Shown here piece after piece: positions 10,036 to 58,133 of a stretch of DNA of 64,000 bases. The stretch covers positions 352,001 through 416,000 of the forward strand of contig CAWBKB010000005.1 of assembly GCA_963789265.1 (NCBI GenBank). Reading direction: 5' to 3'. How positions within the stretch are numbered: the stretch's first letter is position 1; every line of letters begins with the position of its first letter. This DNA is from an uncultured delta proteobacterium. GTDB lineage: Bacteria > Desulfobacterota > Desulfomonilia > Desulfomonilales > Desulfomonilaceae. A program made the translations under genes and the position numbers. The notes below the pieces were generated by a model, which was not told where the DNA came from, made no database searches, and saw only the letters and a program-made list of their open reading frames with translations.

Positions 10036-10051
10036 TACACTGGTAGTATAC
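10036..10051. promoter_or_regulatory. Second operator copy
   Basis: TACACTGGTAGTATAC matches the 9921 and 11167 sites. Confidence 0.5.
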
Positions 10052-10343
10052 TCAATAATGCCTGGTACGCACCCGCCGTGACTTCGGCATGCGCACATCT
10101 GCCTATTCCCCGGAATCGCATCCCGCAGCGCTCATACGGACCGGCAAAATCGACAGCGGATCGACTCAAAGGACACGTTGGACACGTAATCACAGACACG
10201 TCCGACACCTTTCCCCCCTCTTGCTCGCATTCCCGGACGTATGCCTTGTCTCCCCCTCACGGCAGGCTGGATGAGTCCATCCAGTGCCTTCGACATTCAG
10301 GCGGTCGTAGCTGCTGTGCCTGTTTTCATCGGGGGGTCCTTTC

Positions 10344-23262: not shown

Positions 23263-24772
23263 TCAAGTCGTAATTCCATCCCGCCAGATACCCATTTCGA
23301 AGAACTTGTTCACTTCCGTATTGGTTCGTACTTCACCGTTAGCGACCTTCAGTATCAGGTCCAGCAAATCTTCCGTCAGCGTTTCCATACCCGTTCCGCT
23401 AAGCAGCACACCCGCGTCGAAATCGTTCCATTTCTTTTTACGTTTATAAATGTCGCTGTTGGTGGTCACTCGAAGCACCGGTGCCGCAAACCCGCCCGGT
23501 GTACCGCGCCCCGTTGTAAAGAGAATCAGCGTGCAGCCCGCGGCGACCTGACCGGTAATGCTCACCAGGTCATGCCCCGGCGCTTCAAAAAGATTCAGGC
23601 CAGGAACTGCTAACCTCCTGCCGAAGCGAACGACACCGGCCACCTTGGATTTACCCCCTTTTTCCGTACATCCCAGGGACTTTTCTTCCAGCGTGGAAAG
23701 CCCGCCCGCGTAATTTCCTGTGGTAGGATTTTTGCTGACATCGATGCCATATTTTTTATAATAGGCTTTGAAGTCAGTGATCAGCTTGACAATATCGTTA
23801 AATACTTTTTCATCGACCGCCCGATCCATTAGAATCTGCTCGGCGCCGAACATCTCCGGTACTTCCGTCATCACCGATGAACCACCCTGGGCGGTCAAGA
23901 TGTCGGTAATCTGTCCCACCAGCGGATTCGCGGTCAGACCGGAAAAACCGTCCGATCCTGCACAGTTGGTGCCGATAATTAGTTTAGATATCGGAACAGA
24001 TTCTCTTTGATAGGTAAGGGCGCGGACGTGCAGTTCCCGCAATAGCTTCAGCGATGTTTCGAATTCGTCTTCGACGTCCTGGCAAACGATAAACTTGACG
24101 CGTGTCGGGTCAAAATCTCCCAGGCTGGGTTTGAAGGATTCCACGTCATTAATCTCGCATCCTAGACCGACAAAAAGAAACGCCTCCCGCATTGGGGTTT
24201 TTAGACAATCCGGAAAGGATTGATCGGGTATACGATAAATTAAGACCGTCCTCGGCACATCCGCATTCATGGGTAAACGGGATGAAACCGTCGAAATTAG
24301 CAGATGCTGGCATCTCCGTATTTGCCGTGGCGGCCAGTTTTTCTATGGTGCCGTTGACACAAAATACAGTGGGAATAATGTAGACATAGTTTCGGATTCC
24401 CACGCCACCGTCATCGCGCTTGTAGCCATTAAATGTTAATTCCCTCAAAATTAATGGATTTGTAGCGGGAGAGCGTTCCGGATGGTATTGATAGGATACG
24501 GACTCTGTGATGGCGGATTTTATATTATGAATGTGGACCCATTCTCCTTCTCTGATATCCTGGATCGCATAACCGATAGGATAACCGTACTTGTAAACGA
24601 TCTCGCCCTTTTTGATTTCCTTTAAGGCAATCTTGTGGGGAACGGAGATATCGTTCATCACGGTGATGCTTCTTCCTTTAATATTTATGGTCTGTCCTTT
24701 AGCAAGCTGTCTGACAGCCACTGCAACGGGGTCTTTTTCATCAATGACAATCACGTCTTTGGTTAACTGCAT
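23263..24772 (-). CDS. uxaA: UxaA-family (altronate/galactarate-type) dehydratase with SAF domain, frameshift at ~24180
   Basis: HKIAL..KYGYPIG..GEWVHIHN, GIRNY, GLGCE, CAGSDGFSGLTANP, LEEKSLG, FTTGRGTP; one extra T breaks the frame. Confidence 0.85.
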
Positions 24773-24857
24773 GTTAAGCACCTTTATTTCCACTCGGAAA
24801 ATGGATTATTTGTCACATCTCGACCAAGGATCAACAAGGCGTCACTTGGCCGCCTTT

Positions 24858-30004: not shown

Positions 30005-30079
30005 TGGTAGGCGGGAGAGGATTTGAACCTCCGACCCCTGCCGTGTGAAGGCAGTGCTCTCCCCCTGAGCTACCCGCCC
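30005..30079 (-). tRNA. tRNA-Val (anticodon CAC)
   Basis: GGGCGGGTAGCTCAG..CTGCC-TTCACAC-GGCAG..GGTTCAAATCC..CCCGCCTACCA cloverleaf with encoded CCA. Confidence 0.97.
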
Positions 30080-30092
30080 AGTAGTTTCAAAA

Positions 30093-31388
30093 CTACACTT
30101 CTATTGCCTCTTTTGTCAAGGGGTTAGTCTCACGCGAAAGTGATTTTTTTGCCTTCCGCTCAGATTTTGCGTACTCCTTGCGTACCTTTTCCTTATCACG
30201 TTCCAACAACACCTCTTCGACAAAATCCAACTCTGTCCAGCCGTTGTCAAAGGTCATTTCATCCGCGGCTTTTAGGAGTTGTTCATCTGATGCCCTAATA
30301 TAGCGGTCTTCAACAGACCTCTGAGATGAATGACCGACAATGAGATTCCTGATCGTATAGTCCATACCTGACCGCTGGGCGTTGGTTTTCCAAGAGTGCC
30401 GAATATCTCTAATCTGTAGTCCTTCGAGCCCAGACAATTCCACAGCCCGTGACCACGCCTTACGAATCATAAAACGGTCAATCGGCTTTCCTTGGTAAGT
30501 GCCGCAATGATTTTTGTATTGACCCGAATAAGTGAAAACAAGACCCGTAGCACGGATGACGTTTTCGCTATCTTCCCTACGAATCGACTCAAACAAGTCC
30601 ATAATCTCTTTTCTCAGAGGCACTCGTTTGGGTTGTAGTCTCAGCCTCTTGGCACTCTTGCCCTCTTTGGTAGCATTTGGGGGTAATATAACCATCCGAC
30701 GCTCGGGCTTAAACATCTCCCATTTCACATTCACCACCTCGCCGAACCTCATCCCCGTGTAGTACATCACAGTAACTATGTCCTTGAGCCACGATGAGTG
30801 CTGTAACAGGAGCCTGAAATCCTTCCAAGAGACGTAATTGTCCCGCTGCGTTTCGGGTAGCCGGCCAATCATCCGGCAGGGATTAAAGTCAAGATTTTCT
30901 AATTCCACCTGAACCCGAAATATTCCTGACAGCGCTGAGAGCTCTCTGTTGACCGTAGCATTCTGAACCTTCTCCAAGCGAGATTTACGATACTGCTTTA
31001 TCTGGGGGACCTTGATTTCGACGAGGGGGCACCCACTGCCAAAGTATTCGACCAGACGGTCAATGGCATAAACGTTCCTCTCTCGCCCATGCTTTTCGTC
31101 TGCATCCAGATATGCCTTAATCGCTTTCACGAGGGTCAACTCCTCCTCGGGTACAGGAACCTGAAGTTCGGGTGGCAACCTCCATCCCTTGTTTTTAAAA
31201 GTACGCAAAACAAAGTCCAGTTCCTCTGGGTTAAGATGGTCAAAACGGTAAATCCTGAAAGCAGTTCTCACGGCTTTGTCTATTCGCTTGGCCGCGGTCT
31301 CATTTCGAGCGGTCGTCACCGTCCTGATTGGATGTCCTTGCCATTTGAAGTATACATAGAACCGCTCTCCTATTCTCATTACTGCCAC
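30093..31388 (-). CDS. Tyrosine recombinase/integrase
   Basis: ATVNRELSAL, YYTGMRFGEV, RDIRHSW, IVGHS, DRYI; ends 13 bp before the tRNA 5' end. Confidence 0.92.
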   Translation of the reverse strand: MAVMRIGERFYVYFKWQGHPIRTVTTARNETAAKRIDKAVRTAFRIYRFDHLNPEELDFVLRTFKNKGWRLPPELQVPVPEEELTLVKAIKAYLDADEKHGRERNVYAIDRLVEYFGSGCPLVEIKVPQIKQYRKSRLEKVQNATVNRELSALSGIFRVQVELENLDFNPCRMIGRLPETQRDNYVSWKDFRLLLQHSSWLKDIVTVMYYTGMRFGEVVNVKWEMFKPERRMVILPPNATKEGKSAKRLRLQPKRVPLRKEIMDLFESIRREDSENVIRATGLVFTYSGQYKNHCGTYQGKPIDRFMIRKAWSRAVELSGLEGLQIRDIRHSWKTNAQRSGMDYTIRNLIVGHSSQRSVEDRYIRASDEQLLKAADEMTFDNGWTELDFVEEVLLERDKEKVRKEYAKSERKAKKSLSRETNPLTKEAIEV

Positions 31389-31702
31389 GACAAGACCTCC
31401 TTACGAAGGTCGCTCCACAATTCCCCTGAAGTTTTCTTATCGCCTCCCTTCTTGGTTTTTAGGCTGGTCATCTTGTAACCAGCGCCTATGTGATTCACGG
31501 GTGGGGATTCTACCTTAAAAGTCTTGCCGGCCACAAATCTATTAAGCGCCTCGGCGGTAAAAAGAACCACCTTGGCGGAAATCCTAACACATTCAATTTT
31601 GCCTTCTCGTGCCCATCTCAATATCGTTCTCTTCGTGATTTTCAGCTTTGACGCGGCTTTATCTGCGCTCAACAGCTCCTTTCCTGTTTCCTTGTTTATC
31701 AT
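31379..31702 (-). CDS. Excisionase-like HTH DNA-binding protein
   Basis: LLSADKAASKLKITKRTILRWAREGKI; overlaps integrase start. Confidence 0.85.
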   Translation of the reverse strand: MINKETGKELLSADKAASKLKITKRTILRWAREGKIECVRISAKVVLFTAEALNRFVAGKTFKVESPPVNHIGAGYKMTSLKTKKGGDKKTSGELWSDLRKEVLSWQ

Positions 31703-31882: not shown

Positions 31883-32710
31883 TCAGCACTTAACCCACAC
31901 AGATTCAGTGCGGGCTTGTTTTTTCTTGCCCGACCCGTTCGTAGCAGAGCAGGCTACAACGTTACACGGGACCTTAAAATCATGCCTTTCCCATCCTGCT
32001 TTTTCCAATGGCTTGTATATGGGATTGGCGTAACCAGACAGCATGAACTTCCCCTCTAAGCCCAGGAGAAGCTCGACCAGGTCTCCGTGATCCTGATCAG
32101 TCATCTCATGGCAATAGTCTTTGGTTGTCTTCCGAGTTGAATGTACATAAGGCGGATCGAGGTAAAAGAACGTGTTCGGAGTATCATATCGCTTAATGAC
32201 CGTGCGAAAGTCCTCATGATCAACCTGTACGGTCTGCAGGCGCTCGTGTATCTCAGGTAACCGGTCGATTGCTGACAGATAAGCACTCACAAGCTGCGCC
32301 ATACCCTTTCTTCCCTCCCTGATGGAATAGCTGAAACTCTGCCCAACCGCACTGTAGCTCATCCTCATTGTAATAAACCAACGATGCGCCTTATGCACAT
32401 CGTCCGAAGTCTCCTTCCACGTGTCTCTGAAACGAAAGAACTCCTCACGGCTGTACGGCGTGAGAGAAATAAGCCGGACTAGTTCTTGCCACTTATTATC
32501 GTCCCTCAATACCCGGAAGAAATTCACGATGCCTGAATCAAGGTCGTTTATCACTTCAACCGGAGAAACATCCTTTGCGAAAAACAAGGCAGCCGATCCT
32601 GCGAAGACTTCCACATATGTCTGATGTTCAGGAACCAAGGGTAATAATTTGTTGAGAAGCGGGGTTTTGCCTCCATACCTTTTCAGAGGCGATTTCAATT
32701 TTCCTTGCAT
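31883..32710 (-). CDS. Dam/D12-class N6-adenine DNA methyltransferase
   Basis: RYGGK, YVEVFAGSAA, EVINDLD, FFYLDPPY. Confidence 0.92.
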   Translation of the reverse strand: MQGKLKSPLKRYGGKTPLLNKLLPLVPEHQTYVEVFAGSAALFFAKDVSPVEVINDLDSGIVNFFRVLRDDNKWQELVRLISLTPYSREEFFRFRDTWKETSDDVHKAHRWFITMRMSYSAVGQSFSYSIREGRKGMAQLVSAYLSAIDRLPEIHERLQTVQVDHEDFRTVIKRYDTPNTFFYLDPPYVHSTRKTTKDYCHEMTDQDHGDLVELLLGLEGKFMLSGYANPIYKPLEKAGWERHDFKVPCNVVACSATNGSGKKKQARTESVWVKC

Positions 32711-32976
32711 AATTCCTCCACAAGGGGAGGAACACGAAAATAATTCAGTCATCTATTCAAGCAAGCATTGTCGTTATCCTTTCATGTAAGTCAGTATCTT
32801 AAGTCCAGGTCAAATCTGTGTTTCGTGTCCTTCCTTTTTTGATTTTGTTGTTTTTTGATTGGAGCCTCAGTACGTGGGGCTCGGTGTTGATAGCCTGAGG
32901 AATCCCGCCTAGCGGGTTGCCCCCGAGGCGCTGAGTTAGGAAAGGTCTCTGGAACTCCCTTTATACCGCCTTCTCA

Positions 32977-33828
32977 TCAATCTTCGTTTCCTGCATCATA
33001 CTCATCCTCATCCACATCGAAATTGCTCAGGGACTGGAGATACATGTCGATTGCCAGTTCCACATGATATTGAATTGATTCGCCCAAGTCCCTCAGCGCC
33101 CTGTAGTGTTCCGGCGCAAGGGTGACGGTCATATCATCCGTAGGCTCGGACTGGGAATCTTCTGATACAAACGTTTCCTCACTTGTATTTTCAGAGTCCA
33201 GGGACGGTGCTTTTAAAGATTTCTCGGAGGCTTTTGCAGCCTTCCGTTTCTTCTGCGTCTCCTCATACCCCTTGTTCACGCTCATCTCACCGTTCTTAAC
33301 GGCATCTACTGTCTCTGAATCACCGTGATCCATAATCGTTCGCATCCTCTCCGTCTTACGGGAACTGGTTCCCAGTAATTTTGCAGTTGACTCTGAGGAT
33401 TTCCCGGCAGCACCGTTTGGCGCTCCGGCAAATTTTCCGTCTTCATTCCGTTGGGGCACATAACGATCATCGATGATCTCCATGTAAGAAAAGAGTTCCG
33501 CATCGGTCAGTTGGCGACGATGGCACTGGAGCTGGATTGCATGCTCTATGGCTGCCGCTTCGTCATCATAATAGTATTCGTAGACAGGGACTTCCTTGAT
33601 TCCGGCATTTTTGGCGGCTTGCAAGCGGGTGTGCCCGTCAATGCAGACCAGCTCATCCTGTCCTTCCCATTTGGCTACTACGATCGGCTGGGATTCATCG
33701 TACTTCCAATCCCTCATATCCTCTTCGATTATGGTCAATAATTCGGGTCGTATCGGAAACAGGGCTTCGAAGCTCTTGTGTGTCTGTATTTCTGCTGGAT
33801 TCATCGTCTCGATTGTTATTTCGTTCAT
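32977..33828 (-). CDS. ParB/Srx N-terminal-domain protein with HTH
   Basis: PIVV..IDGHTRLQAA, HRRQLT, TAKLLGTSSRKTER. Confidence 0.8.
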   Translation of the reverse strand: MNEITIETMNPAEIQTHKSFEALFPIRPELLTIIEEDMRDWKYDESQPIVVAKWEGQDELVCIDGHTRLQAAKNAGIKEVPVYEYYYDDEAAAIEHAIQLQCHRRQLTDAELFSYMEIIDDRYVPQRNEDGKFAGAPNGAAGKSSESTAKLLGTSSRKTERMRTIMDHGDSETVDAVKNGEMSVNKGYEETQKKRKAAKASEKSLKAPSLDSENTSEETFVSEDSQSEPTDDMTVTLAPEHYRALRDLGESIQYHVELAIDMYLQSLSNFDVDEDEYDAGNED

Positions 33829-33841
33829 CGTACTCACCTTA

Positions 33842-34165
33842 TTAATTTGATTTTGCCGCTCTATCATCTCGGACTTGCGCCCGGCGGCATTCAAAAAGCG
33901 GAGAGTTGGCTGGTACTTTGAGTAGCCATTCGAGGTAACGGTCGCCGTCGAATATTTCCAAGGTGCGCTCCAAGTAATCTGCCGCTCTGTTTACTTTTTT
34001 GGAGATGGACTCCAGATTCTTTTCTATGGAAGCAGTTTTATCAGGAGTCCCCATTCCGAAACCCGTTTCCACAAACAAATCTATGAGGTCGTCTATTCTC
34101 ATGGATGTTTCTCTTAAATTTCCCAGTAGTTCTTCAACTCGGGACATTGCCTTACGTGTCGCCAT
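33842..34165 (-). CDS. Hypothetical protein (107 aa)
   Basis: RBS AAAGGAG; first gene of the leftward element operon. Confidence 0.6.
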   Translation of the reverse strand: MATRKAMSRVEELLGNLRETSMRIDDLIDLFVETGFGMGTPDKTASIEKNLESISKKVNRAADYLERTLEIFDGDRYLEWLLKVPANSPLFECRRAQVRDDRAAKSN

Positions 34166-36338: not shown

Positions 36339-37424
36339 CTAGTGTCCTGTCCCATTAATAAGTTTGCATATTTTCTCGACCTTTCTAAGGATTGAATCCG
36401 CTGTGGCCGTCCACACGAAAGGTCGTGCGTCTTGGTTATAGTTCTTCACGAAGTCTTCAATGCGTTCAACGAGTTGTTTGGTACCTGTAAAGGACCCTCG
36501 AACTATGGCCGGCTGGGAGATTACCCCAAACCATCGTTCGACCTGATTAAGCCAGGATGCATACGTAGGTGTGTAATGAACGGAAAATCTAGGGTGGCTG
36601 GCGAGCCAGTTTTTGACCTTGTGGTGCTTGTGAGTGCAGTAGTTGTCTACAATAAGGTGCACGTTGAGGTCAGCCGGTACGTTTTTGTCCACCCGTTTGA
36701 GGAAACTAAGGAACTCCTGATGCCTGTGTCGCTGTTTACACTCTGTGATCACTTGCCCGGTTGCCACGTCCAAAGCTGTAAAGAGCGTGGTGGTGCCATG
36801 GCGAAGGTAGTCATGGGTGACTCCGTCCACATACCCGAGCCCCAAAGGCAACACAGGTTGACTACGCTCCAGAGCCTGGATCTGGGTCTTCTCGTCCACA
36901 GACAGTACCAGGGCCTTGTCCGGTGGATTCAGGTACAGTCCCACAATATCCCGAACTTTTTCTACAAACTGAGGGTCCGTAGAAAGCTTAAACGATTTAG
37001 TGAGATGCGGCTTAATACCAAAAAGATCCATATACCTTTGCACCGCACTCTTGGAGATTCCGGTCGAGCGCTCCAGACTTCTCATAGTCCATCGATTCCC
37101 TTGCGTCGGAGCGGTCTCCAGGACTGTTTGCAGCAATTGCGCTACCTTCTCGTCGTCATGATCCCTGGGCCGTCCCGGACGTTGCTCCCCATACAGCCCC
37201 GCAAGTCCCTGCTCGAGAAAACGCCTTCGCCAATGGGTTACCGTGCCACCGGATATCCCCAAACGCTGGGCAATAGACGTGTTCGATTCTCCTTCGGACG
37301 AGGCCAGAATGATTTGCGCCCTACGGACAACCCCGTGCCGCGACGTTCGAGATCTGGTCAAATTCTGCAACTCTTTACGCTCCAAATCCGAAAGGACGAT
37401 TTCCTGTTTCTTGGGACGCCCCAT
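36339..37424 (-). CDS. IS630 transposase
   Basis: VDEKTQIQAL, HDYLRHGT, IVDNYCTHK, SWLNQVERWF. Confidence 0.95.
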   Translation of the reverse strand: MGRPKKQEIVLSDLERKELQNLTRSRTSRHGVVRRAQIILASSEGESNTSIAQRLGISGGTVTHWRRRFLEQGLAGLYGEQRPGRPRDHDDEKVAQLLQTVLETAPTQGNRWTMRSLERSTGISKSAVQRYMDLFGIKPHLTKSFKLSTDPQFVEKVRDIVGLYLNPPDKALVLSVDEKTQIQALERSQPVLPLGLGYVDGVTHDYLRHGTTTLFTALDVATGQVITECKQRHRHQEFLSFLKRVDKNVPADLNVHLIVDNYCTHKHHKVKNWLASHPRFSVHYTPTYASWLNQVERWFGVISQPAIVRGSFTGTKQLVERIEDFVKNYNQDARPFVWTATADSILRKVEKICKLINGTGH

Positions 37425-37512
37425 AAGCTTTCGTGCCTCCCTCAGTGATGAGTGGGCACGAATGTAGCAGAAGTCCCTCGCTTTCGTGAGTTATTTGTGG
37501 GACAGGACACTA
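36340..37512 (-). mobile_element. IS630-family insertion sequence
   Basis: TIRs TAGTGTCCTGTCCCA / TGGGACAGGACACTA with TA duplication; inserted in the TAG stop of the IHF gene. Confidence 0.92.
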
Positions 37513-37794
37513 GCCTTCATTCATGGCACTTTTAAACCGGGGCGAGTACTTCCACGTAACAACCCTGCGGGCATTCAACAGCATGGGCTCGCCAGTTTGG
37601 GGGTTCCTGCCACGACGAGCCCTCTTATCCTTCACAGACCATTTCCCGAAGCGAGAGATCATAACCTCATCCCCAGCGACAAGCTGTGCCTTCATGATAC
37701 CGAGGAGTTTTTCTAAGATCTCTTCCGCTTCCCCCTTCAGGAAACCGCAATCACCGGCGATTTTCTTTGCTATATGTGCCTTGGCAAATGTCAT
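37510..37794 (-). CDS. Integration host factor alpha-like protein
   Basis: ISRFGKWSVKDKRARRGRNPQTGE. Confidence 0.88.
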   Translation of the reverse strand: MTFAKAHIAKKIAGDCGFLKGEAEEILEKLLGIMKAQLVAGDEVMISRFGKWSVKDKRARRGRNPQTGEPMLLNARRVVTWKYSPRFKSAMNEG

Positions 37795-38223
37795 GACAAC
37801 CTCCCCAAATTTCATTTTAAGTGGCATAGAGGGTTTAGAATAGCAGAAATGTGACCTTAAAGGCAATGATATCAGGATATTCTTACAAGCAGACTCGTGA
37901 TGATCATGACAGAGCACTCGGACACGGTCAGTCGGAGTGGACAACTTATCAAAACCACCCTGTCCAGCTCACCGCCACGCTGGTTTACGGTTATCGAATG
38001 CATTTTCTCCGGGCGAATGAAATACGGGACTTCTCACGGTACTGTAGCTTGCCTTCTCGCGTTCTCAGAACCCCATACGCGAACGTTCCTGGTTTTGAAC
38101 AACTTAGCATACTCCTAACCAGAAAATCGCGGAGAATCGTTCTGAGGTGCCTTCTGATTCGCGTCTCGCGGACGACTCGGGTCTGTGATAAACTGCCGGG
38201 AACACCTGATCGAGAGTTGCCCT

Positions 38224-38845
38224 ATGAGTGACGAACAAGACCTAAATTCCCAGCGCACGCGAATAATGGAAATCTGGCACGAGTACGGTCAGACCTTTAA
38301 TGCCTTCGTGCCCGAGGAACAACCATTTCCTGAGGAATGGGAACCAGATTTGCCGGCACCGGATGAAAAAGGTCGTCTCAGCCCGTAGGCCCTTAAGCAC
38401 TGGGAACAGCTCTTTCCTACAAAAGAATTCCTCCGCCAGCGCTATGCAGAGCACCACATTCTGGGAGGGCCTTCTCTGAACTTTGACTGTTTGGTCCCCA
38501 AATTCCAGAGGCGCATGGTCAACCGTGTAGCCGAAGACGAGTATGGAAATCCCTTGCATATCCCCGTTCGGGATTGCCACGAATGGTATGATTCGGCTTT
38601 ACGGATCGGTATATTTCAATGGCAAGTCGGTTTTTCTTGCCGTTCTGTACTGTGCCAGCGCAAGTGGTGCAAGCTCCATCGAGATAACCCCGCCCGTATT
38701 TCCGCGAGCCGCTTGGCGGGGAGGATTAATTCCGAGATCCTCAAGAGGAATCGTGCTCTTTCAACTGAGGAACAACAAGCACTTGTCAACGAAAACCTAG
38801 CGCAGGAATACATTGATCACTTTCATAGCCGGTATCCCGCCGTGA
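38224..38845 (+). pseudogene. Internally deleted initiator::polA fusion relic
   Basis: 5' part paralogous to the 46482 gene (TAG at 38386 where the paralog has CAG); from ~38700 paralogous to the PolA segment ISPAGLCGKVN..YIDGFHSRY. Confidence 0.85.
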
Positions 38846-39148
38846 GAGGGCACTGCCGCCATAAACAATATCAAGAGCTTGCGAAAAAACCCCAGACATT
38901 TCGAGCCCTGTTGATCCCTTTCGGTCCTTTTCGGTCCCTCACGGTCCCTGAAAATGTTAACACCATGTTAACAAGGAACCTGGCAACTCCCACTCGCGAC
39001 CTCCGGCGTGACAGGGCGTGGCCCTCCGTAGTAAAATCAACAACATATCCAGGAACCCGAGTCATCTCGTCCCCAGGGGAGCAATCCGGATTGAAGTCTA
39101 GAATTCTACGTGATTCTTATGCCAAAAAAACCCTCGTATAGCGACAAA

Positions 39149-40313
39149 TCAGGCACTGACATACAGTTTCGTTAATACGAACTCTCTGTGCCCGAGGGCC
39201 TCGGCGGCCGTCAATCGCCCGTTTGCAGTCCGAACGATCATTTCAAGTAGCTTGTCTCCCGCCTGATCCAAAGTCATCTCACCCCGGAGAATGGCGGAAA
39301 CGTCCAGATCGATATGTTCACTCATAGGTACTGCATGTGAGAGGGTTAGCGGACAATTTTATCACGGGGAGAATAGGATTCCCTATGATGTTTCCCTGTC
39401 CGGTGGGGAACAGATGTACCACGGCACCGGATGCAGCCCACAGGGTGACGGCTTCTGCAGCAGCAGAAGAGGTATCCATATACCATAATCCTTTGCCCTT
39501 CGGGGCCTCGGCAGGCTTGAGCACCCCTACGTACCGTGCCTTCTTGCCGATCTTCTGGAGGTTTCCGAAAGCCTTCTCTTCTATGGTCGTCAGGCCTCCC
39601 CGGATATTCCCCTTGGTGGGCTGTGAACCTGACAGATCATCGGTCTTGAACTTCACGATAATGTCGTCGTAGGCATTCCAAACTCTCATGAATTCCTCGC
39701 CCACTTCGGGCGTGGCGGCACGTTCTTTACAAACGTGCTCTGCACCGGTAATCTCCGATGTCTCGCCAAAGCAGGTGGTCGCGCCCATATCTACAAGCTT
39801 GTCTATGGCATTCCCCACCGTGGGATTCGAGGCAAGTCCGGAAGTTGTATCCGATTCGCCGCACTTGACCGAGACATATAGCTCGTTGAGATGGCAGTCA
39901 GTTTTCGGCAGTTCCGTAGCCCAGTGGACGTATTCTTTGGCCTGACGTGAAGCTGCGGCAATCGTGGTGATATCGCCACTGCGTTCAATGGAGAAACCCT
40001 TAACGGGTTTACCAGTTTTTGCTATGCCCTGGACTATACGATCCGTCCATTCAGGCTCGATACCGATTACTACCACTGCAGCAACGTTCGGGTTTGAGCC
40101 GGTTCCTATAATCGTCCTGAAGAACAGTTCGAGATCCTCACCGAATTGCAGACGGCCATATGCGTGAGGAAGGGCCAGTGTACCTTTTATGTTGCTTGCC
40201 ACTGCTTCACATGCCGCATTGGACAAATCGTCCAGAGGCAGAATCACAACATGGTTACGGACACCGACACGCCCGTTTTCTCGACGATAACCTGAAATTT
40301 TTGGTTTATCCAT
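39149..40313 (-). CDS. suyB: Sulfolactate sulfo-lyase beta subunit-like, frameshift at ~39327
   Basis: [44 protein letters not shown]-terminus [26 protein letters not shown] in the next frame. Confidence 0.8.
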
Positions 40314-40315
40314 TG

Positions 40316-40594
40316 CTACCACCTCTTTGTTCTGAGATTCTGAGTGTGAACGTGTTCGCCCGCTCGAATATCCGTTGTAACTACGCCAATGTCATGACCG
40401 TATTTGATTACGGTATCACCGGCTTTAAAATCTTTGAGGGCGATTTTGTGCCCAAGCGGGATGGGGTTCAAAACCTTGACTTGAAGAATCTCTTGAGAAT
40501 CCATAAATAATCCCTCGGCGTTCTCACCGGCATTCATATCCATGGTGACCACACCAACGGAATCGGATTTCTCATGCACCAGAAAATTTATCAT
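40316..40594 (-). CDS. suyA: Sulfolactate sulfo-lyase alpha subunit-like (SAF domain)
   Basis: [42 protein letters not shown]. Confidence 0.8.
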
Positions 40595-40829
40595 CTTTTC
40601 TCCTCTTATGTTCCGGACTGAATGGCTCGGATACATAAACAGACCGAATCTATTCAGTCCCGGTGATAAAAAACGTGGTATTCGCTTCCGGCACTATGGC
40701 GACACGAGGACGTCCCGGAAAATTGTTGATCCAATCGTGTATTGTTTGAGACGGCGAAACCGCCCGCAACTGACACTTTCTTAGTATTTTTGCTTGCAGC
40801 TCCGATGCTATCGCCACTTCAAAGCTGTC

Positions 40830-43521: not shown

Positions 43522-44451
43522 TTATACTTTGCCATCCTGATCTCCCTCTCCCATGCGCCGGGCACTGTGAGTTTCCACTAGGAAGACCGCAAGCGTGGAG
43601 GCAGCACCAACAGCCAGTTTTGCATGTCTCGATTCGAGGCCTTTGCTTCTTGCCTCCTTTCCATGACCCGTACCATACTGGTTTCGCAACTCTGCAATCC
43701 CCTTAGTAATTGACGCAAGATTGCTCAGCAGGCGTTTGATTGTTTCCGAAGCTTTTGTTCGATCAGGAATATCTTCAGGCGTCAACTTGAGGTGTTTGGT
43801 CGTTAATTTTACCAACTGTGGCAGATCTGCGCTATCGGGTACCGGAACCTCGCACTCAGTCAATATGGTCTTGCAGCAGGACTCCACCAACTCCTTCGAG
43901 GTTCCAATGGCAAGTGCAGGATCGCTCTCCACGGCCGTTTCCATTCGAGTGATCTGCTGGGATACGTGAGCTGAGTCGGCGACTAACGCAGCCGCACTAA
44001 CTGCTGCGAGTCCCGGGGTCGTTACAACGCCTATATAGCGGCCCACGAAGACTGGCTTCCTCGAAAGCCGCATTTTTTCTATGATCTGAAAACCATCGCT
44101 CTTGAGGTGACCGTTGTACATCTGAACAAGCCTTTCCGCCTCTTCAACGTCCGGCCTCACGATCGGATGGACGGTTTCGCAAAGAAACCGTAGAACGGTC
44201 TCATCTTCGCAGCCCAGCAGATTGAACCGGCCATCGTAAAAAATCCAATCACTCTGCCAGTCATCGTTGTTGATCGTGTGTTGGACAATGTCTCCGTAAG
44301 CATTGTGGAACCGGTGATCACGGGAAGGAAGACTTTTCAGATCAAAAAGCCGCGACAAGAATTCAAGACCCTCAAGCCGACCGGCCCAGTGGCTTCCACT
44401 CAGAGACAGTGCGTCAAAGATGTCACGTCTGGTAACCTCACTGATCTTCAT
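43522..44451 (-). CDS. Abortive-infection protein (AbiJ-NTD3 + Abi_C/HEPN)
   Basis: ISEVTRRDIFD..GRLE..FLSRLFDL..FLCETVHPIVRPD; C-terminal LRNQYGTGHG..RHAKLAV. Confidence 0.85.
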   Translation of the reverse strand: MKISEVTRRDIFDALSLSGSHWAGRLEGLEFLSRLFDLKSLPSRDHRFHNAYGDIVQHTINNDDWQSDWIFYDGRFNLLGCEDETVLRFLCETVHPIVRPDVEEAERLVQMYNGHLKSDGFQIIEKMRLSRKPVFVGRYIGVVTTPGLAAVSAAALVADSAHVSQQITRMETAVESDPALAIGTSKELVESCCKTILTECEVPVPDSADLPQLVKLTTKHLKLTPEDIPDRTKASETIKRLLSNLASITKGIAELRNQYGTGHGKEARSKGLESRHAKLAVGAASTLAVFLVETHSARRMGEGDQDGKV

Positions 44452-44769
44452 TTTTTCACTCGCATGCGAGAGAGAGGCGTTGCCGTTTCCATGGACCAGA
44501 AGCCTTGCCTAATGCTGTCGGCGGTTATATCCCAGACCTTGAGGCGGCGCAAGCCACACTTTGGCCGCGGTATCTGGTCGCTCCGTGTCCAAGAATGCGA
44601 AAACTACAATGCGGACCAGGTGAGCGGCTGTCCGCGTGGATAATTCCTAACAAATATGATAGCGTAGGGTCCATGCCTGATACCACTGGGTGACTGCAGG
44701 CCTTGGCCTGTCATGTGAGCAAGTCTAGAACATGTTGGTCAGAAATTGGGGCTTGAGGAGCTTAGTACG

Positions 44770-45795
44770 ATGCGAGTTAGATTTTCTGTTGGAGAATTGG
44801 CCAACATCTTGAGCGAAACCGTGGGGTTCAAATCTGGATTGGCGCTGACTAGATCCGCATTGTTTGAATTAGTCGCAGGCGAGTCGGCTTACGCCAATCA
44901 GCTTGATTTGCCTGCTTACGAAACGATTGTCATGCGAGGAGAGGAATTTGACGAAATATATTACTTGGTTCTCTACAAATTAGGGGTAACAGATTCACCG
45001 ACCCCGACATCTCCCTTGGATTTCAATCTCTTTACGAGGTACAAAGATAAACCAAAGGAACTGGAAACGTTTTTGGGGGTGCAACGAATTTATGCAGAGG
45101 TCGCACGCGAGGAAATACATAAAGTCGAACTGACAGGAGAGGGGTCACTAGATCCAACAGAGTTCATTAAACGCTCTGCAAATAAGTTCGGGTCCCTGGG
45201 ACTTGAAATGGCCATGGAAACTATTCAAGGAGTGAACCACCATCTCAATCTTCATCCATTTTCGTCATTGCGCCGGGTCGAATGGAAAGAAATCCGAGAC
45301 TTGGAAGATCTATTCCTGAGCGAGAATATTCGTGCCGAACAGGGCAAATTTTTTGATCAGAGATTCATTGATTTTCTCAACCGAAATTTCGAGCAAATCG
45401 ACAATATCAATTGGCGCCAGTTTGAGGCATTGACGGCTGAATTCTTTGACCGGCTCGGCTATGATGTTGAGTTAGGCCCCGGACGGGACGATGAAGGAAT
45501 TGACGCTAGGGTTTGGGACAAGGGAATCAGCACTGGCGGGCCACCGCTTATAGTCATCCAATGCAAGAGACAAAAAGCCAAGGTTGAAAAGGTTGTAGTG
45601 AAGGCGCTTTGGGCAGACCTTAGTGCTGAACAAGCGAACTCAGGACTTATCGTTACAACGTCAGCACTTTCACCAGGCAGCGTAAAAACATGTCGAGCTA
45701 GAGGATACCCGATTGAGCAAGCAAATCGAAATAATTTAAGGAAATGGCTAGACCAATTGAGGACCCCTTGGTTTGGTGCCTTCATGGACGAGTGA
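44770..45795 (+). CDS. Mrr-like restriction endonuclease
   Basis: WRQFEALTAEFF..GYDVELGPGRDDEGIDA..IQCKR..GLIVTTS. Confidence 0.85.
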   Translation: MRVRFSVGELANILSETVGFKSGLALTRSALFELVAGESAYANQLDLPAYETIVMRGEEFDEIYYLVLYKLGVTDSPTPTSPLDFNLFTRYKDKPKELETFLGVQRIYAEVAREEIHKVELTGEGSLDPTEFIKRSANKFGSLGLEMAMETIQGVNHHLNLHPFSSLRRVEWKEIRDLEDLFLSENIRAEQGKFFDQRFIDFLNRNFEQIDNINWRQFEALTAEFFDRLGYDVELGPGRDDEGIDARVWDKGISTGGPPLIVIQCKRQKAKVEKVVVKALWADLSAEQANSGLIVTTSALSPGSVKTCRARGYPIEQANRNNLRKWLDQLRTPWFGAFMDE

Positions 45796-45999: not shown

Positions 46000-46253
46000 G
46001 AATCTCGCGGACTATTCAAGGAATTGATGACAGATTCTGCTCGCCGGTTCCTTGTGCTATATGAAAAGCCGAGGCAGCCGAGGTAGCCAAATTGGAAAGG
46101 ATTGACCAAATCGCTGAACAAGCCGGCCTTGTGACTGCATGGCATTACGGGCAGCAATTCCGAATATTTGTTCCTGCCCAAGAGCCTGCGCCGTCCACCT
46201 GGGAACCTCACGTGTGGGAATTTGACGAGAAAAGATCTACGGCAGTTCTGTGA
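46000..46253 (+). pseudogene. Decayed third copy of the initiator gene 5' end and promoter
   Basis: WHYGQQFRIFVPAQEPAPSTWEP..FDEK matches WHEYGKNFSAFVPEEQPFPEIWEP..DDK; shared GAATCTCGCGG and TTGTGCTA upstream. Confidence 0.65.
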
Positions 46254-46481
46254 CACATTCAGTAACCAACCTCCGAAAGCTAGCTCAACGCATTTTTCCT
46301 CCAAATCTTCGAAAAACGGCCATGCTAAGACATACCCCAATCCGTAACGTCGCTCAGAATCCATTCTAGATCCCTTATGGGACGAATCTCGCGGCCGATT
46401 ACGCCCACAGAAAACACGGTTCCTCAGCATGCCTTGCTTGTGCTAAAGTGAGCGACAACTATTCAAGTGTCGGGCGCCGCA

Positions 46482-47537
46482 ATGAACTCAGAGGAAGATC
46501 CCAAAGACACGGACGATCAAAGAGACGACTTGCTCAAGCAGTGGCACGAGTATGGGAAGAACTTTTCCGCCTTCGTGCCCGAGGAACAGCCTTTTCCCGA
46601 GATCTGGGAACCTGAAATTCCCGAGGCTGATGACAAGGGCCGCCTTCATATCCAGGCGCTAAAGCACTGGCAGCACCTGTTCCCCACTAGGGATTTCCTA
46701 CGCGACAGATATGAGCAATACCATATCTTGGAAGGCCCTTCTCTCCAGTTTGATTGTCTGGTTCCTAAATTTCAAAACCGCATGTATTACCGGGTCGTGG
46801 AAGATGAGTACGGCAATCCCTTGCATATTCCTGTCAAAGATACCCCTGAATGGTATCACTCCGCCCTGCGGATTGGAATATTTCAATGGCAGGTCGGGTT
46901 TTCGTGCCGCTCCGTGTTGTGCCAACGCAAATGGTGCAAACTCAATTTGGATAACCCGCAACGGATGAGCCCGATAGATATATACAGTCTGATTGATCTC
47001 TTCGAGGCTCGCGGGCCGGGCCAAGCCATGTCCATAGTGTCAAAATGGTTTGGCGTGAAGCTCAAGCGTCCTGGATCCAAAGGAACTGCTCAGGTCCAGG
47101 GTTATAGGCACTCGGTGTCAAAGCAGGCAGTATATGACCTATTTTCCCGATACGCCAGCATGAGACACTAACATGTTGAGGGTTTCATCAAGGAGGCGGT
47201 GGACCTGATAAAGGGTTCCCAGTTGGTACCCTGGCACGGGCGACTCTTTAATGCTGAATATGCTTTCTTAAGCAAAAAAGTAGTCAGCAACCTCTACCGT
47301 ATCAAGAGTCCCGCGGCCAAGGCTTATCTTTGGTTGCTCATACAGCAGGAGGAGACATCCCGAAACACCAGGGTCAAATTCAGTGCTACGGATGCGCAGT
47401 TGGCACAAGGGCTGGGAGTAAGCAAGACCACGGCGACAAAATACCGGGAGCAATTGCAAGGGTTGGGGCTGTTGAAGGCCCAAGCGGAAAGGGTCGGCAA
47501 AGTAGTTGAGATCAGGATCAAAAGTGCGAAATACTAG
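46482..47537 (+). CDS. Putative replication initiator (Cys-rich primase-ZBD-like region + C-terminal winged HTH) with an in-frame TAA at 47169-47171
   Basis: ORFs 46467 and 47199 share a frame; FSCRSVLC..PIDIY..AMSIVSKWFGVKL; KAYLWL..TDAQLAQGLGVSKTTATKYREQLQGLGLL. Confidence 0.6.
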
Positions 47538-47756
47538 GCCCCTACTTCAACTTGGCGGTGTCGAGGTCTTTTTGTAGGCGGGTACTACAAAATCCCTCTT
47601 CACATACCAATTATTAGTTATGCTAGATATCTTCATAGCTGATAGCCTTCGCTCTGTGGTGCCCTTAGTCCCTCCCGCCTCAGTTGCCCTGGTGATACCT
47701 CACCCTCTCTGAAAGACTATATATATGACTTAGCTTATCAATACGAGTATTTCTGA

Positions 47757-49427
47757 ATGAATGTCCCAGAGCTTAAATCCTTACTTACGCATAACAAAGA
47801 GCCTATAGCCGTAACAGCTCCTTTGATCTTACAAAATACTGCACTTATTGGCTTATACACTTCAGTTGGAGACTCTTACTGTGCAGAACTGCCTACCAGT
47901 GAGCTGAAACAAATAGGAGAATTACTGTACCAGCCTAAACGCTTTCCGATCACAGTCCACGGCTTAAAACGTATTTGGGAGTTCCTTGACCTTAACACCG
48001 ACGAGCTGGATCTCAAGCTCATTACTGATACTAAGCTCCTAGCGTACCTGCTCGATCCTGACGCCGGCGAGACTAACGGATTGACGCTTACGCATTTGGC
48101 TTATCAGTATTTGGGAGAGGAATACCCGCATATTGCCAGTGAAGTACAGGATAAGGGCGTGCTCAAAGCTTTAAGAAAGAGCCTGATGCGGGATGCCCAA
48201 GCAATCTGGTCCCTTGGTAAAGAGCTGCCACAACATATGTCCAAGGATCTGCTCAGGGTGTATCACCACCTGGAGCTGCCTTTAGTGGTCGGTACTGGAC
48301 CGTATGCGGAGAGTCGGAATAGGAGTTGATGGCGCTGCGGCTGTACAAAGTCAGAAGCCGCATTGTTAAAGAAATTGCCGAACTGGAACAGCGGATTACT
48401 GGCGGCGAGAAGCCTAACCTTATGTCTCCTTCTGAGGTATTCCAGTTGTTAATGAGACGCGGGGTCCGCTTTAAGAGTGAGTTCGTGTACGCTGTGCATA
48501 AGGTAATGACGCCTGCACTGGAGGAAATTAGCCACGTCTATCCTGTTGTTCAGGACTTACTCAATTGGCGAAGCAGAGTTACGGATTTGGCTTTTCTCCA
48601 CAAAGCTGCCGGTCAGATTCGGGTCCATCCTATTTGGCAGCAAACTCGTGCCGGGACTTCCCGCATTTATGCCCGTGATCCTGCAGGTACAGAATGTGAG
48701 TCGAGCTCTTCGTGAAAACATATTAGTTCCGGCTCCGGGAAAGGTACTCGTGAAAGCGGACTACTCACAGGCACAGCTACGGATTCTGGCGCACCTGTCC
48801 GGAGATCCTGCTCTGATTGATCTGTACCAACGAGGAGGAGATGCCCATGCTGAGACGGCTAAAATCCTGGACATTGACCGTGATGCTGCTAAAGAGGTGA
48901 ATTTCGGTATCTGTTTCGGCATCTCACCGGCAGGCTTGTGCGGCAAGGTCAATGCCGTCATAGCCAAAAAGAATCGTTCATTGGCCGTGGGAGAGCAAAC
49001 GCCATTGATCGACGAAGGGACAGCTCAAGCTTACATTGACGGCTTTCATTCACGGTATAGCGGTGTGCAGGACTTTTTCGAGAAGGAATGGAGGAAACTG
49101 AAAGCCCTTCCCATGGAGCGTCGTTCGGTGAAAAGTCTCCTGGGCAGAATCAGGCGATTTGATACCCGAGCGAATCCGGCTACCCAGCGGAGCTTTAGAG
49201 TGACTTGGCCGCAGCAAATAGAAGCTGATCTGATAAAGACGGCCATGGTACGCCTTGATTGTATTTTTACGAAGCGCAAGACGGGAGCACGAATTGTGAT
49301 GATGATCCATGATGCCTTGTGGGTCGAGGCACCGCACGCAGAAGCTGAACAGGTGAGGCACCTGCTAAGAAAAATGATGACCGCGATAGGCAAACTCAAG
49401 GTTCCTCTGGAAGTGGACCTCAAGTAA
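47757..49427 (+). CDS. Divergent stand-alone family A DNA polymerase (exo-like + pol domains, no 5' nuclease), three +1 frameshifts
   Basis: DTKLLAYLLDP, LELPL..VLDRMRRVGIGVD, motif A ADYSQAQLRILAHLSGD, motif B RDAAKEVNFGICFG, motif C IHDAL; extra bases at ~48291, ~48348, ~48686. Confidence 0.88.
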
Positions 49428-49860
49428 CCACCTTCAAGCCTCTGTCGATATCCCGCTTAGGGTGCCTTTTTGAGATAATTCGCTTTGTTTGATCTTCACC
49501 CGCTCTTGCCATTGATCTTCCAGTACCGAAGCTGATTTGTAATTTTTCCACCGATACAGAATAGGTGCGTCTCTCGATGGTGAACCGAAAGGGTACGGCG
49601 AAGATCTTCCTATGACGCGCGTTTCTCGCGCAACCAGAACGCCGTAGACGCGCGGAGGCAATTTACGGATACTCTGCCATACCCCGAATTAGAAAATCGC
49701 GCATTTCGCGGCTCAGGTGGCCTATAAGCGATGTCTTCTTTTGCTGGTTATCGAGGCTGTTCAGCAAGGGTCTAGCGAACCCGGCTTACCGTGCACCCAG
49801 AAAAATTAGATTGACCGTGGCCTGAGCAGTAAGGTACTTTCAAGAACCGATATAAGAGCC

Positions 49861-49997
49861 CTTTTCAGCAACATGACGGTTTTGCCTCGGTTGGGTTTTG
49901 TGGAAGGAGATAAGGGGCCTTCTCGGGACCCAGGGAGCCCCTGGCCCCTCATTGGCACCAAGACGCCCGAAATGGCAAGACCGCCGCATAATTCAGG
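49861..49997 (+). repeat. ~140 bp dispersed repeat, copy A
   Basis: TTTTCAGCAACATGACGG..GGAAGGAGATAAGGGGCCTT..CCGCATAATTCAGG. Confidence 0.75.
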
Positions 49998-51078: not shown

Positions 51079-51320
51079 GTCGATACGTGAAATGTGTCGC
51101 CGGCTGGCTTCTTTTCACTTCTTGAATTGGGGCCGCGGGGCAGACAGGGAGATGACGGACACCCAAAGGGATGGTATGCTGGAAAACGGCCTGAAATGAG
51201 GTATCTTATGCACTGATGAACCAACCCGTCTACGTTGAGCTGATTGCAAGAACTAGAAAGGCCTTCTGAGTCGGATTCCGGTCTAATTTCCGGGTCCGTA
51301 CAAAAGCAGGAAGAATGTAG

Positions 51321-51465
51321 CTTTTTCAGCAACGTGACGGCGGTCTTGCCTCTATCGGGTCTTGTGGGAGGAGATACGGGGCCTTTTCGAGGTTACGGGA
51401 TCAATCCCTTGATCGGTCATCTGCCCCATGACACCCAAAATAGCTGGACCCCCGCATAATTCCGG
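51321..51465 (+). repeat. ~140 bp dispersed repeat, copy B
   Basis: TTTTCAGCAACGTGACGG..GGGAGGAGATACGGGGCCTTTTCGAGGT..CCGCATAATTCCGG. Confidence 0.75.
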
Positions 51466-54393: not shown

Positions 54394-54476
54394 CTGCACG
54401 CGGGAGGCTCGCCCTACAAACGCTGACGCCTCCCCGCGAGACAAGTTAAGACCTTAGTTTAAAAGGAGAATACAGG

Positions 54477-54620
54477 CTTTTTCATCAAGCTGACGACGGT
54501 TTTGTATTTGTCAGGTCTGGTGGGAGGAGATACGGGGTCTTTTCGAGGTCAGAGAAACCATCACTCACCCTTTACTGGCAATAATACGCACAACATAGCA
54601 ATAACGCCGCATAATTATGG
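54477..54620 (+). repeat. ~140 bp dispersed repeat, copy C
   Basis: TTTTCATCAAGCTGACGACGG..GGGAGGAGATACGGGGTCTTTTCGAGGT..CCGCATAATTATGG. Confidence 0.75.
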
Positions 54621-56318: not shown

Positions 56319-56883
56319 TCTTCCCGAAGATACGGAGCGACGTTGGGCGACTGACCAGCCCCCCACATAGCAGGGTAACCGACAGCGAAGTTCCCAGGGC
56401 ATTGCCACACCTGGTTTCTTGCAGCGGTGATGTCACCTGCCGTTGATCGATGAGGATTGTGATGTTCCGTCTGCGTGCGAAAGTTCCAGTTAAGAGGGGT
56501 GTGGCTGACATCTCGGCCGGTCCGGGTGATGAGGAAAGTGACGAAAAGCTCAACAGTGCTTTTGTCCCACGATGGGTCGAGACAGAGCGGACATGAGGGT
56601 TACTTCCTCATCCACCCTCTGACGAGGCAGGATTCATCCATGTAGGTTGTCCCCGGAGTGTCGATCGATGAAAGTGGGACGGGGCAATCCCCTCCGGGAG
56701 CGCGATTGCGGTCGAGAACGAGTCAGAGACGATTTAATGGGTGTCTGTCGCCCTCTTGGCTGAAATTCGCTCGCCAAGAAATCGTCCGTAATCGTTGCTG
56801 ATGAAGCCGGCTTTCGGGAGTGAAGAATTCCTGGGGAGGTGTGATTGATCGAAGTGGGGTTGTCTTTAGTGTGTGGAACCACT

Positions 56884-56939
56884 GGCGGTGTCTGCACCAA
56901 TTGCAGACGGACTTCTCTGTCGATAGCACCACCCTTCAG
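56884..56939 (+). repeat. ~55 bp hairpin-containing repeat, copy 1
   Basis: GGCGGTGTCTGCACCAATTGCAGACGGACTTC..CGATAGCACC. Confidence 0.6.
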
Positions 56940-58034: not shown

Positions 58035-58073
58035 TCGGAGCAGGAAGCCTCCGTTTGGAGGTGTAGGGGCATC

Positions 58074-58133
58074 GGCGCTGTCTACAACAGTTGCAGACGG
58101 ACTTCGCCTGCGATACCACCGTCCATTCTTCAG
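58074..58133 (+). repeat. ~55 bp hairpin-containing repeat, copy 2
   Basis: GGCGCTGTCTACAACAGTTGCAGACGGACTTC..CGATACCACC. Confidence 0.6.

Follow-up and report, generated by a model that had tools for sequence, protein, structure and literature searches.

Mobile elements that carry their own DNA polymerase, among them pipolins, casposons and SCCmec, have been a repeated source of new ways to start DNA synthesis. In the CcPol-MP system, as described in PMC7581432, an A-family polymerase and a DNA-binding partner act as a primase on an integrative element, and CcPol uses deoxynucleoside triphosphates (dNTPs) only. PolA-SSB pairs, in the account of Rice 2023 (PMC10061031), occur in Bacillota only, always have an OB-fold partner and usually have a helicase. 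TV-Pol elements combine an A-superfamily polymerase with a lambda-type integrase, resolvase or transposase, and the polymerase has been proposed to prime and extend (PMC2579912). Here we analyze a locus that compares closely with these systems in a 64,000-nucleotide stretch of DNA, referred to as the window (assembly GCA_963789265.1, contig CAWBKB010000005.1, positions 352,001 to 416,000), from an uncultured delta proteobacterium of the Desulfomonilaceae. At window positions 46467 to 49427 a gene for an initiator-like protein, which we call the partner, is followed by a gene for a stand-alone family A DNA polymerase, which we call PolA. The pair probably represents, in decayed form, a two-gene module that replicates small integrative elements and is of the CcPol-MP-like kind; the module is hosted by Desulfomonilaceae, Syntrophaceae and related Thermodesulfobacteriota and is also present on one plasmid. 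An earlier sequence-only reading of the window had proposed an undescribed PolA-based integrative replicon. A-family polymerase modules on integrative elements are already published in TV-Pol, CcPol-MP and PolA-SSB (PMC2579912, PMC7581432, PMC10061031), and only the clade and its partner are new.

The window copy of the pair (copy A) is broken in both genes. The initiator-like gene (46467..47537, + strand, about 356 codons) was found by frame-by-frame translation to be a single reading frame apart from one TAA at 47169-47171, which falls at a position that is Gln in the consensus of an alignment of 16 full-length homologues. The encoded protein is 89% identical to the homologue P0001, and its C-terminal helix-turn-helix (HTH) matches Pfam HTH_Crp_2 at E 8e-4, under the curated cut-off. 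An intergenic region (47538..47756, + strand) containing a terminator-like hairpin at 47551-47565 and an ATACC[AT][AT] site from 47604 leads to the PolA gene (47757..49427, + strand, about 555 codons). A tblastn search with an intact relative resolved this gene into four segments in three frames, with frame changes near 48287-48289, 48353-48357 and 48688-48690; the last piece matches PF00476 at E 5e-44 and the middle piece at 3e-5, and the 5′ nuclease is absent. The first reading had therefore described two genes of about the right length and composition, a Cys-containing gene with a C-terminal HTH followed by a PolA lacking the 5′ nuclease, and had mentioned frameshifts; to the three in PolA must be added the in-frame stop in the initiator-like gene, and because of these lesions both genes count as pseudogenes in the assembly. 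At 23263-24793 a frameshift also breaks a host-type altronate dehydratase gene mid-domain (GD_AH_second), so that assembly error is possible for the copy A frameshifts, but a nonsense substitution together with three shifts in about 400 bp looks more like decay.

Homologues in other genomes form a conserved linked pair, as the first reading had anticipated. A genome scan yielded 13 loci (L001-L013) from Desulfomonilaceae, Syntrophaceae, ‘delta proteobacterium’, Thermodesulfobacteriota or unclassified metagenome-assembled genomes (MAGs), and PolA lies directly 3′ of the partner in seven of them (L002, L004-L009). In L011 PolA follows the partner after an insertion sequence (IS) with a DDE_Tnp_1_4 transposase and a TIR-domain gene (5891-8924), and in L001 PolA remnants follow the partner after about 4 kb of open reading frames (ORFs) without a family; L001 and L009 come from one MAG. 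Across 12 loci and the window the only recurring genes are the pair itself, an integrase, a ParB-like gene and host kinases, and no ORF 3′ of PolA is conserved across loci. Virion, conjugation and primase domains were absent from the loci scanned with Pfam, which comprised L001 (from position 4768), L002-L006, L008, L009, L011 and L012, that is, all but L007, L010 and L013.

The association with recombinases and tRNA genes that had been predicted for the element is also observed, and in virion-free loci. The recombinases of L008, L009, L011 and L012 are upstream of the pair and divergent from it. L008 reads tRNA-Asn, tyrosine integrase (20 bp from the tRNA), initiator, PolA, small unknown ORFs and a host kinase, and L012 has a tyrosine integrase beside tRNA-Pro. 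L011 reads integrase (at the contig end), Xis, ParB-like gene, initiator, the IS and TIR insertion, and PolA. In L009 a 5′-truncated comM-like gene is followed by a large serine recombinase, the initiator and PolA. This comM-like Mg-chelatase gene (L009 6783-7718) lacks its N-terminal third and ends about 500 nt from the recombinase; comM may be the integration target in this locus, and its 5′ part was not found among the downstream ORFs. The islands of L008 and L009 appear to contain little beyond the recombinase, the pair and a few small family-less ORFs.

Conservation extends into the DNA between the two genes. The first ~90 nt past the partner stop codon are 75-86% conserved between several loci, and an alignment of 12 loci shows an invariant ATACC followed by AT-rich sequence. 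The motif ATACC[AT][AT] is in register in 11 of the 11 loci with readable sequence there, and its density over the examined regions is 0.56 per kb (both strands, conserved sites counted in). No consensus RNA structure was found between the partner and PolA genes. The site may be a promoter for the polymerase gene, an operator or part of an origin.

The polymerases encoded by intact members (545-580 aa; 544 aa in L002) match PF00476 at E 1e-52 to 6e-61. Among solved structures the best matches of the L002 protein are the Klenow, Taq and Bst large fragments (E ~1e-37), with Pol theta and the apicoplast polymerase next. The Pol I models of NCBIfam align with the members only from model position ~370 onward, and the family is thus without a 5′ nuclease; a 3′-5′ exonuclease family was not detected by Pfam in any intact member. 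A V/L-T-A-P strand is conserved near the N-terminus, which is presumably about where proofreading enzymes carry DxE. Both catalytic Asp residues are kept in 82 of 82 aligned members, and the Lys, Asn and Phe of motif B are invariant in the same set. The surrounding pocket is altered. All 82 have Gln in place of the steric-gate Glu (Klenow E710). At the Klenow E883 position, which follows the motif C Asp, Ala is present in 61 members, Ser in 17 and Cys in the other 4; in T7 RNA polymerase the residue that follows the motif C Asp is Ser. At the Y766 position 77 members carry Phe and 5 carry Tyr. Among 149 aligned representatives and references the gate Gln occurs in just 21, all in one clade. 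Two proteins of 600-618 aa at the base of the PolA clade, P0232 and P0236, keep the steric-gate Glu and already have HDA or HDG in motif C, which hints that the two active-site changes of the clade arose stepwise. The altered nucleotide-sugar pocket, the absence of a 5′ nuclease and the lack of a recognisable proofreading motif would fit a specialised initiating or priming role rather than repair.

The family is also distinct by phylogeny. A profile search of 1.84 billion representatives returned about 28 PolA family representatives at 830 to ~316 bits, below which lies a long plateau of 850-950-aa proteins matching from about residue 350-440, the pattern of canonical Pol I. A tree of representatives of at least 480 aa (82 rows, 472 columns; IQ-TREE quick search, LG+G4, with Shimodaira-Hasegawa-like approximate likelihood ratio test [SH-aLRT] support only) included 34 of 101 long sequences (every third, 67 left out), all 22 short non-family sequences, 22 family members and 4 phage sequences. 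The 22 family rows constitute one side of a branch (SH-aLRT 97) beside the canonical 850-950-aa Pol I, with P0263, which has the same Gln, Ser and Phe states, as their sister (support 97); the PolA of plasmid pDESTI.01 nests within the clade. Two polymerases from fecal phage contigs sit among canonical Pol I, and those of T7 and Microbacterium phage Barnstormer are on long, distant branches whose mutual join is unreliable. In a phage collection of 50,697 records, 2405 match PolA and none exceeds 30% identity. Membership in the phage family A polymerases (T7-like, D29-like, SPO2-like and others) is contradicted by this low identity, the distant tree position and the lack of virion genes in the scanned loci. 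Of the two outcomes that the sequence-only reading named as refuting it, a grouping of PolA with ordinary phage polymerases and a lack of linkage to the initiator and integrase, neither is observed.

The partner family is equally coherent. With the 234-aa N-terminal fragment as query, 91 homologues were identified among 143 candidates (E down to 4e-139), a similarity that chance would not produce; most are 340-372 aa, and the named ones are from Thermodesulfobacteriota and Desulfomonile tiedjei. Homologues were absent from the phage collection, and fused forms were not seen among proteins of 665-2000 aa, which is weak evidence. An alignment of 64 full-length sequences has 24 invariant columns, and Cys residues C92, C142, C147 and C152 (P0001 numbering) are present in 64 of 64. 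Pfam recognizes only the C-terminal HTH of these members (HTH_Crp_2 in 39 of 64, HTH_36 in 15 of 64, best E 2.9e-4), below curated cut-offs for member 1. An AlphaFold2 model from the 64-row alignment (predicted local distance difference test [pLDDT] 87.2, predicted template modelling score [pTM] 0.57), and a separate model of the N-terminal 234 residues (pLDDT 84.3, pTM 0.70), were obtained, and the predicted partner consists of helices, two beta hairpins and winged helices. Foldseek comparison of the whole model with the PDB returned winged-helix proteins only, at E of at least 0.03, the top matches being the DNA-binding domain of the staphylococcal RepA initiator (4pql, 5kbj, 4pt7; a weak E of 0.03), and a profile search of PDB sequences gave marginal HTH matches only (E at least 0.56). 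The last ~90 residues of the partner, and only these, weakly match replication-initiator families of PHROGs, including DnaD-like and O-like ones (phrog_270 at E 2e-5 and 6e-4; phrog_186 and phrog_678 at E ~2e-3 to 6e-3). The winged helix thus appears to bear a weak resemblance to replication initiators.

The conserved Cys region raises the question of a more specific function. The pair could be an origin-specific primase-polymerase in which the Cys-rich region of the partner forms a primase-type zinc ribbon that grips the template, much as MP does for CcPol, while PolA with its altered sugar gate makes the first dinucleotide and extends it. This is what the sequence-only reading had in mind; it would be a sharper sub-case of the replication module, and we regard it as possible but unlikely. 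The gate residue is among the points that speak for it, since Gln occupies the position in 82 of 82 members: E710 is one of two residues of E. coli Pol I that act against ribonucleotides, and, in the description of PMC7581432, it is retained in CcPol, the enzyme restricted to dNTPs. The invariance of the four Cys residues and the absence of a primase gene from every scanned locus are also consistent with this proposal. The sequence-only reading had likened the Cys segment to the CHC2 zinc domain of DnaG, and part of that likeness persists in comparisons by language model. In the ESM Atlas, partner residues 1-250 score 0.87 against primase zinc-ribbon families, and residues 80-200 score 0.93 against clusters with PF08273 Zn_Ribbon_Prim (100% of members) and PF01807 Zn_ribbon_DnaG; the best BFVD match of the N-terminal model is annotated as the N-terminal part of T7 Gp4 primase/helicase, although weakly (E 0.33, template modelling [TM] score 0.25).

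Other comparisons do not bear the likeness out. The Atlas features shared by the partner number 124-134 of 256, under the 170 usual for true family members, and a Pfam search of the 64 members, with E values up to 1 allowed, gave no zinc ribbon. Foldseek returned no PDB match for the N-terminal model (best E 2.2). An hhalign comparison of the partner profile with single-sequence templates gave probabilities of 0.3% for E. coli DnaG residues 1-131 and 0.2% for T7 gp4 residues 1-265, and at the sensitivity of hhalign a primase zinc ribbon is rejected by profile comparison (probability at most 0.3%). The spacing of the Cys residues (C, ~50 residues, C-x4-C-x4-C) differs from that of known primase zinc ribbons, which carry CxxC or CxH knuckles. 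Nor was an AEP or Rep primase found among the PDB Foldseek matches of the whole partner or its N-terminal model, or in Pfam. The primase zinc-ribbon likeness of the Cys region is therefore only a lead. Taken furthest, it would make the pair a third, independently evolved A-family primase-polymerase, one that has lost the gate and the second motif C carboxylate, works with an origin-binding partner containing a cryptic zinc module and initiates replication of an excised 5-10 kb circle without a primase or helicase of the element; such an enzyme is a tentative and rather doubtful proposition.

The evidence favors the pair as the core module of small integrative elements, because the pairing is tight, the recombinases and their targets are varied, divergent copies are decaying, the active site is conserved, and virion and transfer genes are absent. 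Gene linkage, recombinase linkage, clade identity and conservation of the catalytic residues are direct observations in this argument, as is decay in the window. Replication of the excised element would be the most economical role for the pair, given the precedent of CcPol-MP, PolA-SSB, TV-Pol elements and pipolins. The binding of DNA, an interaction of the two proteins, priming, and replication itself are steps that we infer, and they may be arranged as follows. A site-specific recombinase, in most cases a tyrosine integrase at tRNA genes and in one locus a large serine recombinase, would insert and excise the element. The ~350-aa partner would use its C-terminal winged helix to bind element DNA, perhaps at the ATACC site 3′ of its own gene, and pass opened or single-stranded template to the Klenow-like polymerase of the element. 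The polymerase would then start DNA synthesis on the excised circle, with a helicase and the remaining replisome drawn from the host.

Several observations weigh against a replication module. The winged helix resembles initiators only weakly, and any winged helix would be expected to score similarly. Four of the 13 loci lack PolA, one after a full-length partner (L003) and three after partner fragments (L010, L012, L013), and no recombinase was seen in the scanned flanks of L001, L002, L005 and L006. Short-word BLAST revealed no convincing attachment (att) repeat or element end in the window, L008 or L012, and mobility is consequently inferred from context only. Both window copies are dead, including the second copy described below, and the pair is non-functional now in this genome region, whatever its role elsewhere. 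Defence genes are found near the pair in the window (AbiJ, Mrr-like), L005 (Type ISP), L011 (TIR) and L006 (HicAB), and PolA matches the PADLOC model PDLC03816 RTasPolA (DRT) at E 1e-34.

These last two findings, together with the AbiE and BREX-like ATPase genes of the plasmid, are what would be expected if the pair were an anti-phage or anti-plasmid defence module, with the polymerase as effector and the winged-helix partner as DNA sensor, transported as island cargo. We consider this improbable. The PADLOC match, at 118 bits, is about half of the 254 bits obtained with the NCBIfam Pol I model, which points to general PolA homology, and no reverse transcriptase is present in the scanned loci. 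The partner has no PADLOC match in two of three proteins tested and only a marginal HTH match in the third (E 0.001-0.004). In L008 and L009 the pair lies beside the recombinase and, with it, provides the only sizeable island genes, which is a core position and not that of cargo. In L005 the Type ISP restriction-modification enzyme 5′ of the pair is split by a transposase fragment, and a cluster 3′ of the pair (L005 15549-20352) encodes a ResIII/SNF2-type helicase, a DUF6094 methyltransferase and a PD-(D/E)XK nuclease.

The lack of a visible recombinase in some loci bears in turn on whether the pair might belong to the host. Exonuclease-dead auxiliary PolAs that do not replace Pol I are a known bacterial pattern, as described for APEX and CHEAP (PMC10201439), and the pair might be a domesticated repair polymerase of this type, accompanied by its own transcription regulator and uninvolved in the replication of elements. 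The L002 locus would suit this view, since ordinary host genes flank the pair there and no recombinase is visible. Such an origin has very little probability in our estimate. The variety of recombinases and tRNA genes, the divergent copies per genome, the plasmid copy and the frequent decay are marks of a mobile element, and the supposed regulator has a large conserved extra domain with four invariant Cys residues. Both the defence and the repair explanations fit less well than replication of an integrative element.

The plasmid copy is informative with respect to where the module resides. The only close match in the plasmid collection is pDESTI.01 of D. tiedjei DSM 6799, a circular molecule of 26,923 bp (L014). 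On it a tyrosine recombinase gene and a hypothetical gene are followed by the partner and PolA, both 50% identical, then by 1.5 kb of repeat-rich non-coding DNA and by genes including a PD-(D/E)XK nuclease, RNase HI (4670-5113), AbiE and ParA. The repeats directly after PolA (1-620) are direct and inverted and are built on GATATC and CGTATCG motifs. As further points against the replication module, the plasmid has a second initiator-like gene (8880-10085, 401 aa, HTH_36) that adjoins ParA and matches the same PHROG initiator families at E 1.6e-6, and the minimum of the cumulative GC skew, at ~9-10 kb, is beside this gene and not beside the pair. GC skew was rejected for this reason as an origin marker for the pair and is no help to a replication role. 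The plasmid shows the pair travelling on extrachromosomal DNA, not replication of the plasmid by the pair, and the pair could be an element inserted in pDESTI.01. Two further proteins, P0070 and P0180, are encoded on a 6.5-Mb contig, from which D. tiedjei apparently has a chromosomal copy of the pair as well.

Within the window a second, more severely damaged copy of the pair (copy B, 38248..38847, + strand) joins initiator residues 8-159, interrupted by an in-frame stop, to PolA residues 384-426. In a repeat search 38275-38690 aligned with 46542-46957 of copy A at 73% nucleotide identity over 417 nt, and tblastn placed the PolA residues at 38698-38847, directly after the initiator part. By these alignments copy B has lost ~2 kb internally, and the loss joined the initiator to PolA; the two genes were thus side by side already in a divergent second copy. 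A third scrap of the initiator (N-terminal residues 13-48; 46128..46232, + strand, found by tblastn) is contained in a degenerate direct duplication of ~385 bp, at 46000-46445, immediately 5′ of the copy A initiator.

The accessory genes named in the first reading are all present, but the pair studied there is not in the same block as the integrase. The block consists of tRNA-Val(CAC) (30005..30079, − strand), which abuts the gene of a tyrosine integrase (30093..31388, −; 51% identical to the L011 integrase), an HTH_17 excisionase-like protein (31379..31702, −; 53% identical to its L011 counterpart), a D12-class N6-adenine DNA methyltransferase (31883..32752, −), the Dam-like enzyme of the first reading, a ParB-like protein (32977..33894, −; 35% identical in L011, with homologues 5′ of the pair in L004 and L011), an inserted IS630-type transposase (36339..37424, −) and an HU/IHF-family DNA-binding protein (37510..37944, −) that adjoins copy B. 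All of these are contiguous with copy B, and the order integrase, Xis, ParB-like, initiator, PolA is the same in L011; the integrase block therefore goes with copy B and not with copy A. Copy A is 7.6 kb beyond copy B and 15 kb from the block. The DNA between the copies contains an altronate-dehydratase paralogue, a DHDPS-family gene, an IS1595 fragment, a GNAT gene and, just 5′ of copy A, defence-type cargo in the form of an AbiJ-like gene (43522..44451, −) and an Mrr-like nuclease gene (44746..45795, +). An att repeat of tRNA-Val was not found in the window by short-word BLAST of the tRNA region. In agreement with the first reading, a Pfam scan of 51 window ORFs (restricted to those of at least 170 aa in 1-28000) detected no capsid, conjugation, helicase or primase domain, and the tRNA is the sole Rfam match.

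Other features of the window are recorded here for completeness. The altronate/galactarate dehydratase paralogues are at 23263-24793 and 39318-40636, and the second is split between its SAF domain and the remainder. A ~90-nt repeat occurs three times downstream of copy A (49856-49945, 51320-51409 and 54476-54565; 60-79% identical), each time ~90-135 nt 5′ of a + strand ORF (50080, 51498 and 54657), and perhaps serves these ORFs as a common leader or regulatory element; another repeat, a 60-nt pair, is at 56871-56930 and 58061-58120. Outside the tRNA-Val island, among host metabolic genes, a 506-aa ORF (18820-20340) weakly matches UPF0236 (E 8e-7), a family that we take to be transposase-like.

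For the window alone the significance is modest, in that two decayed copies mark an old integration hot spot at tRNA-Val. More broadly, the clade takes the A-family version of an element-encoded polymerase into anaerobic Thermodesulfobacteriota, with a different partner whose N-terminal fold matches no solved structure and with an active site from which two carboxylates of canonical Pol I, one of them the ribonucleotide-excluding residue, are gone. If the pair were in fact a primase-polymerase, these elements would rank with the smallest known integrative replicons that prime themselves, and no earlier one built on PolA would lie outside Bacillota. The cultured strain D. tiedjei DSM 6799 has an intact pair on pDESTI.01 and apparently a chromosomal one, so that priming by a Pol I derivative, the effect of the Gln gate and replication after excision are testable.

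A published description of the pair was not found in literature on D. tiedjei plasmids, RTasPolA and mobile-element A-family polymerases, and its relationship to known systems can be stated by comparison. Canonical Pol I (Klenow, Taq, Bst) is closest by sequence and tree, and the catalytic residues of motifs A, B and C are kept here; the differences are the missing 5′ nuclease and Pfam 3′-5′ exonuclease, Gln at E710, Ala, Ser or Cys at E883 (HD[A/S/C] in 82 of 82 members in place of the canonical HDE), mostly Phe at Y766, and linkage to a partner gene and recombinases. The phage PolAs described in PMC10201439 all keep the exonuclease, and none of the 19 PolA clusters of Czernecki et al. 2023 (PMC10201439) is so described, the pair being set apart by those descriptions only. 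Pipolins, as presented in PMC11551731 and PMC7385651, are similar in being integrative or plasmid elements at tRNA genes with their own DNA polymerase and defence genes, but their primer-independent polymerase is of family B and is without an equivalent partner gene, whereas the polymerase here is of family A. TV-Pol elements likewise are mobile, encode a polymerase and a recombinase, and are found in integration hot spots with restriction-modification genes. TV-Pol itself is a minimal, highly divergent domain, often accompanied by a D5-like helicase, whereas PolA is Klenow-like, aligns over the whole domain and matches PF00476 at up to 6e-61, and a D5-like helicase was not found in the scanned loci.

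The differences from CcPol-MP and PolA-SSB are finer. The partner here is upstream, ~350 aa long and predicted to combine a helical/beta region with a winged helix, whereas in CcPol-MP it is an OB fold encoded directly downstream. Unlike in CcPol-MP, no Cch/MCM-like helicase is next to the pair in L002, L006, L008, L009 or L011, and the helicases of L005 and the plasmid lie in clusters separate from the pair. In most cases the recombinase here is a tyrosine integrase that acts at tRNA genes, Gln replaces the steric-gate Glu retained in CcPol, and the exonuclease-like N-terminal domain that is truncated in CcPol is full length. Thermodesulfobacteriota are the hosts here, whereas the published pairs all come from Bacillota. 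Against these differences stands the shared architecture: in CcPol-MP, in PolA-SSB and, as predicted, in the present pair, an A-family polymerase that derives from Pol I and lacks the 5′ nuclease resides on an integrative element beside a site-specific recombinase, together with a small-to-medium DNA-binding partner of a previously unknown family and with restriction or defence cargo on the elements.

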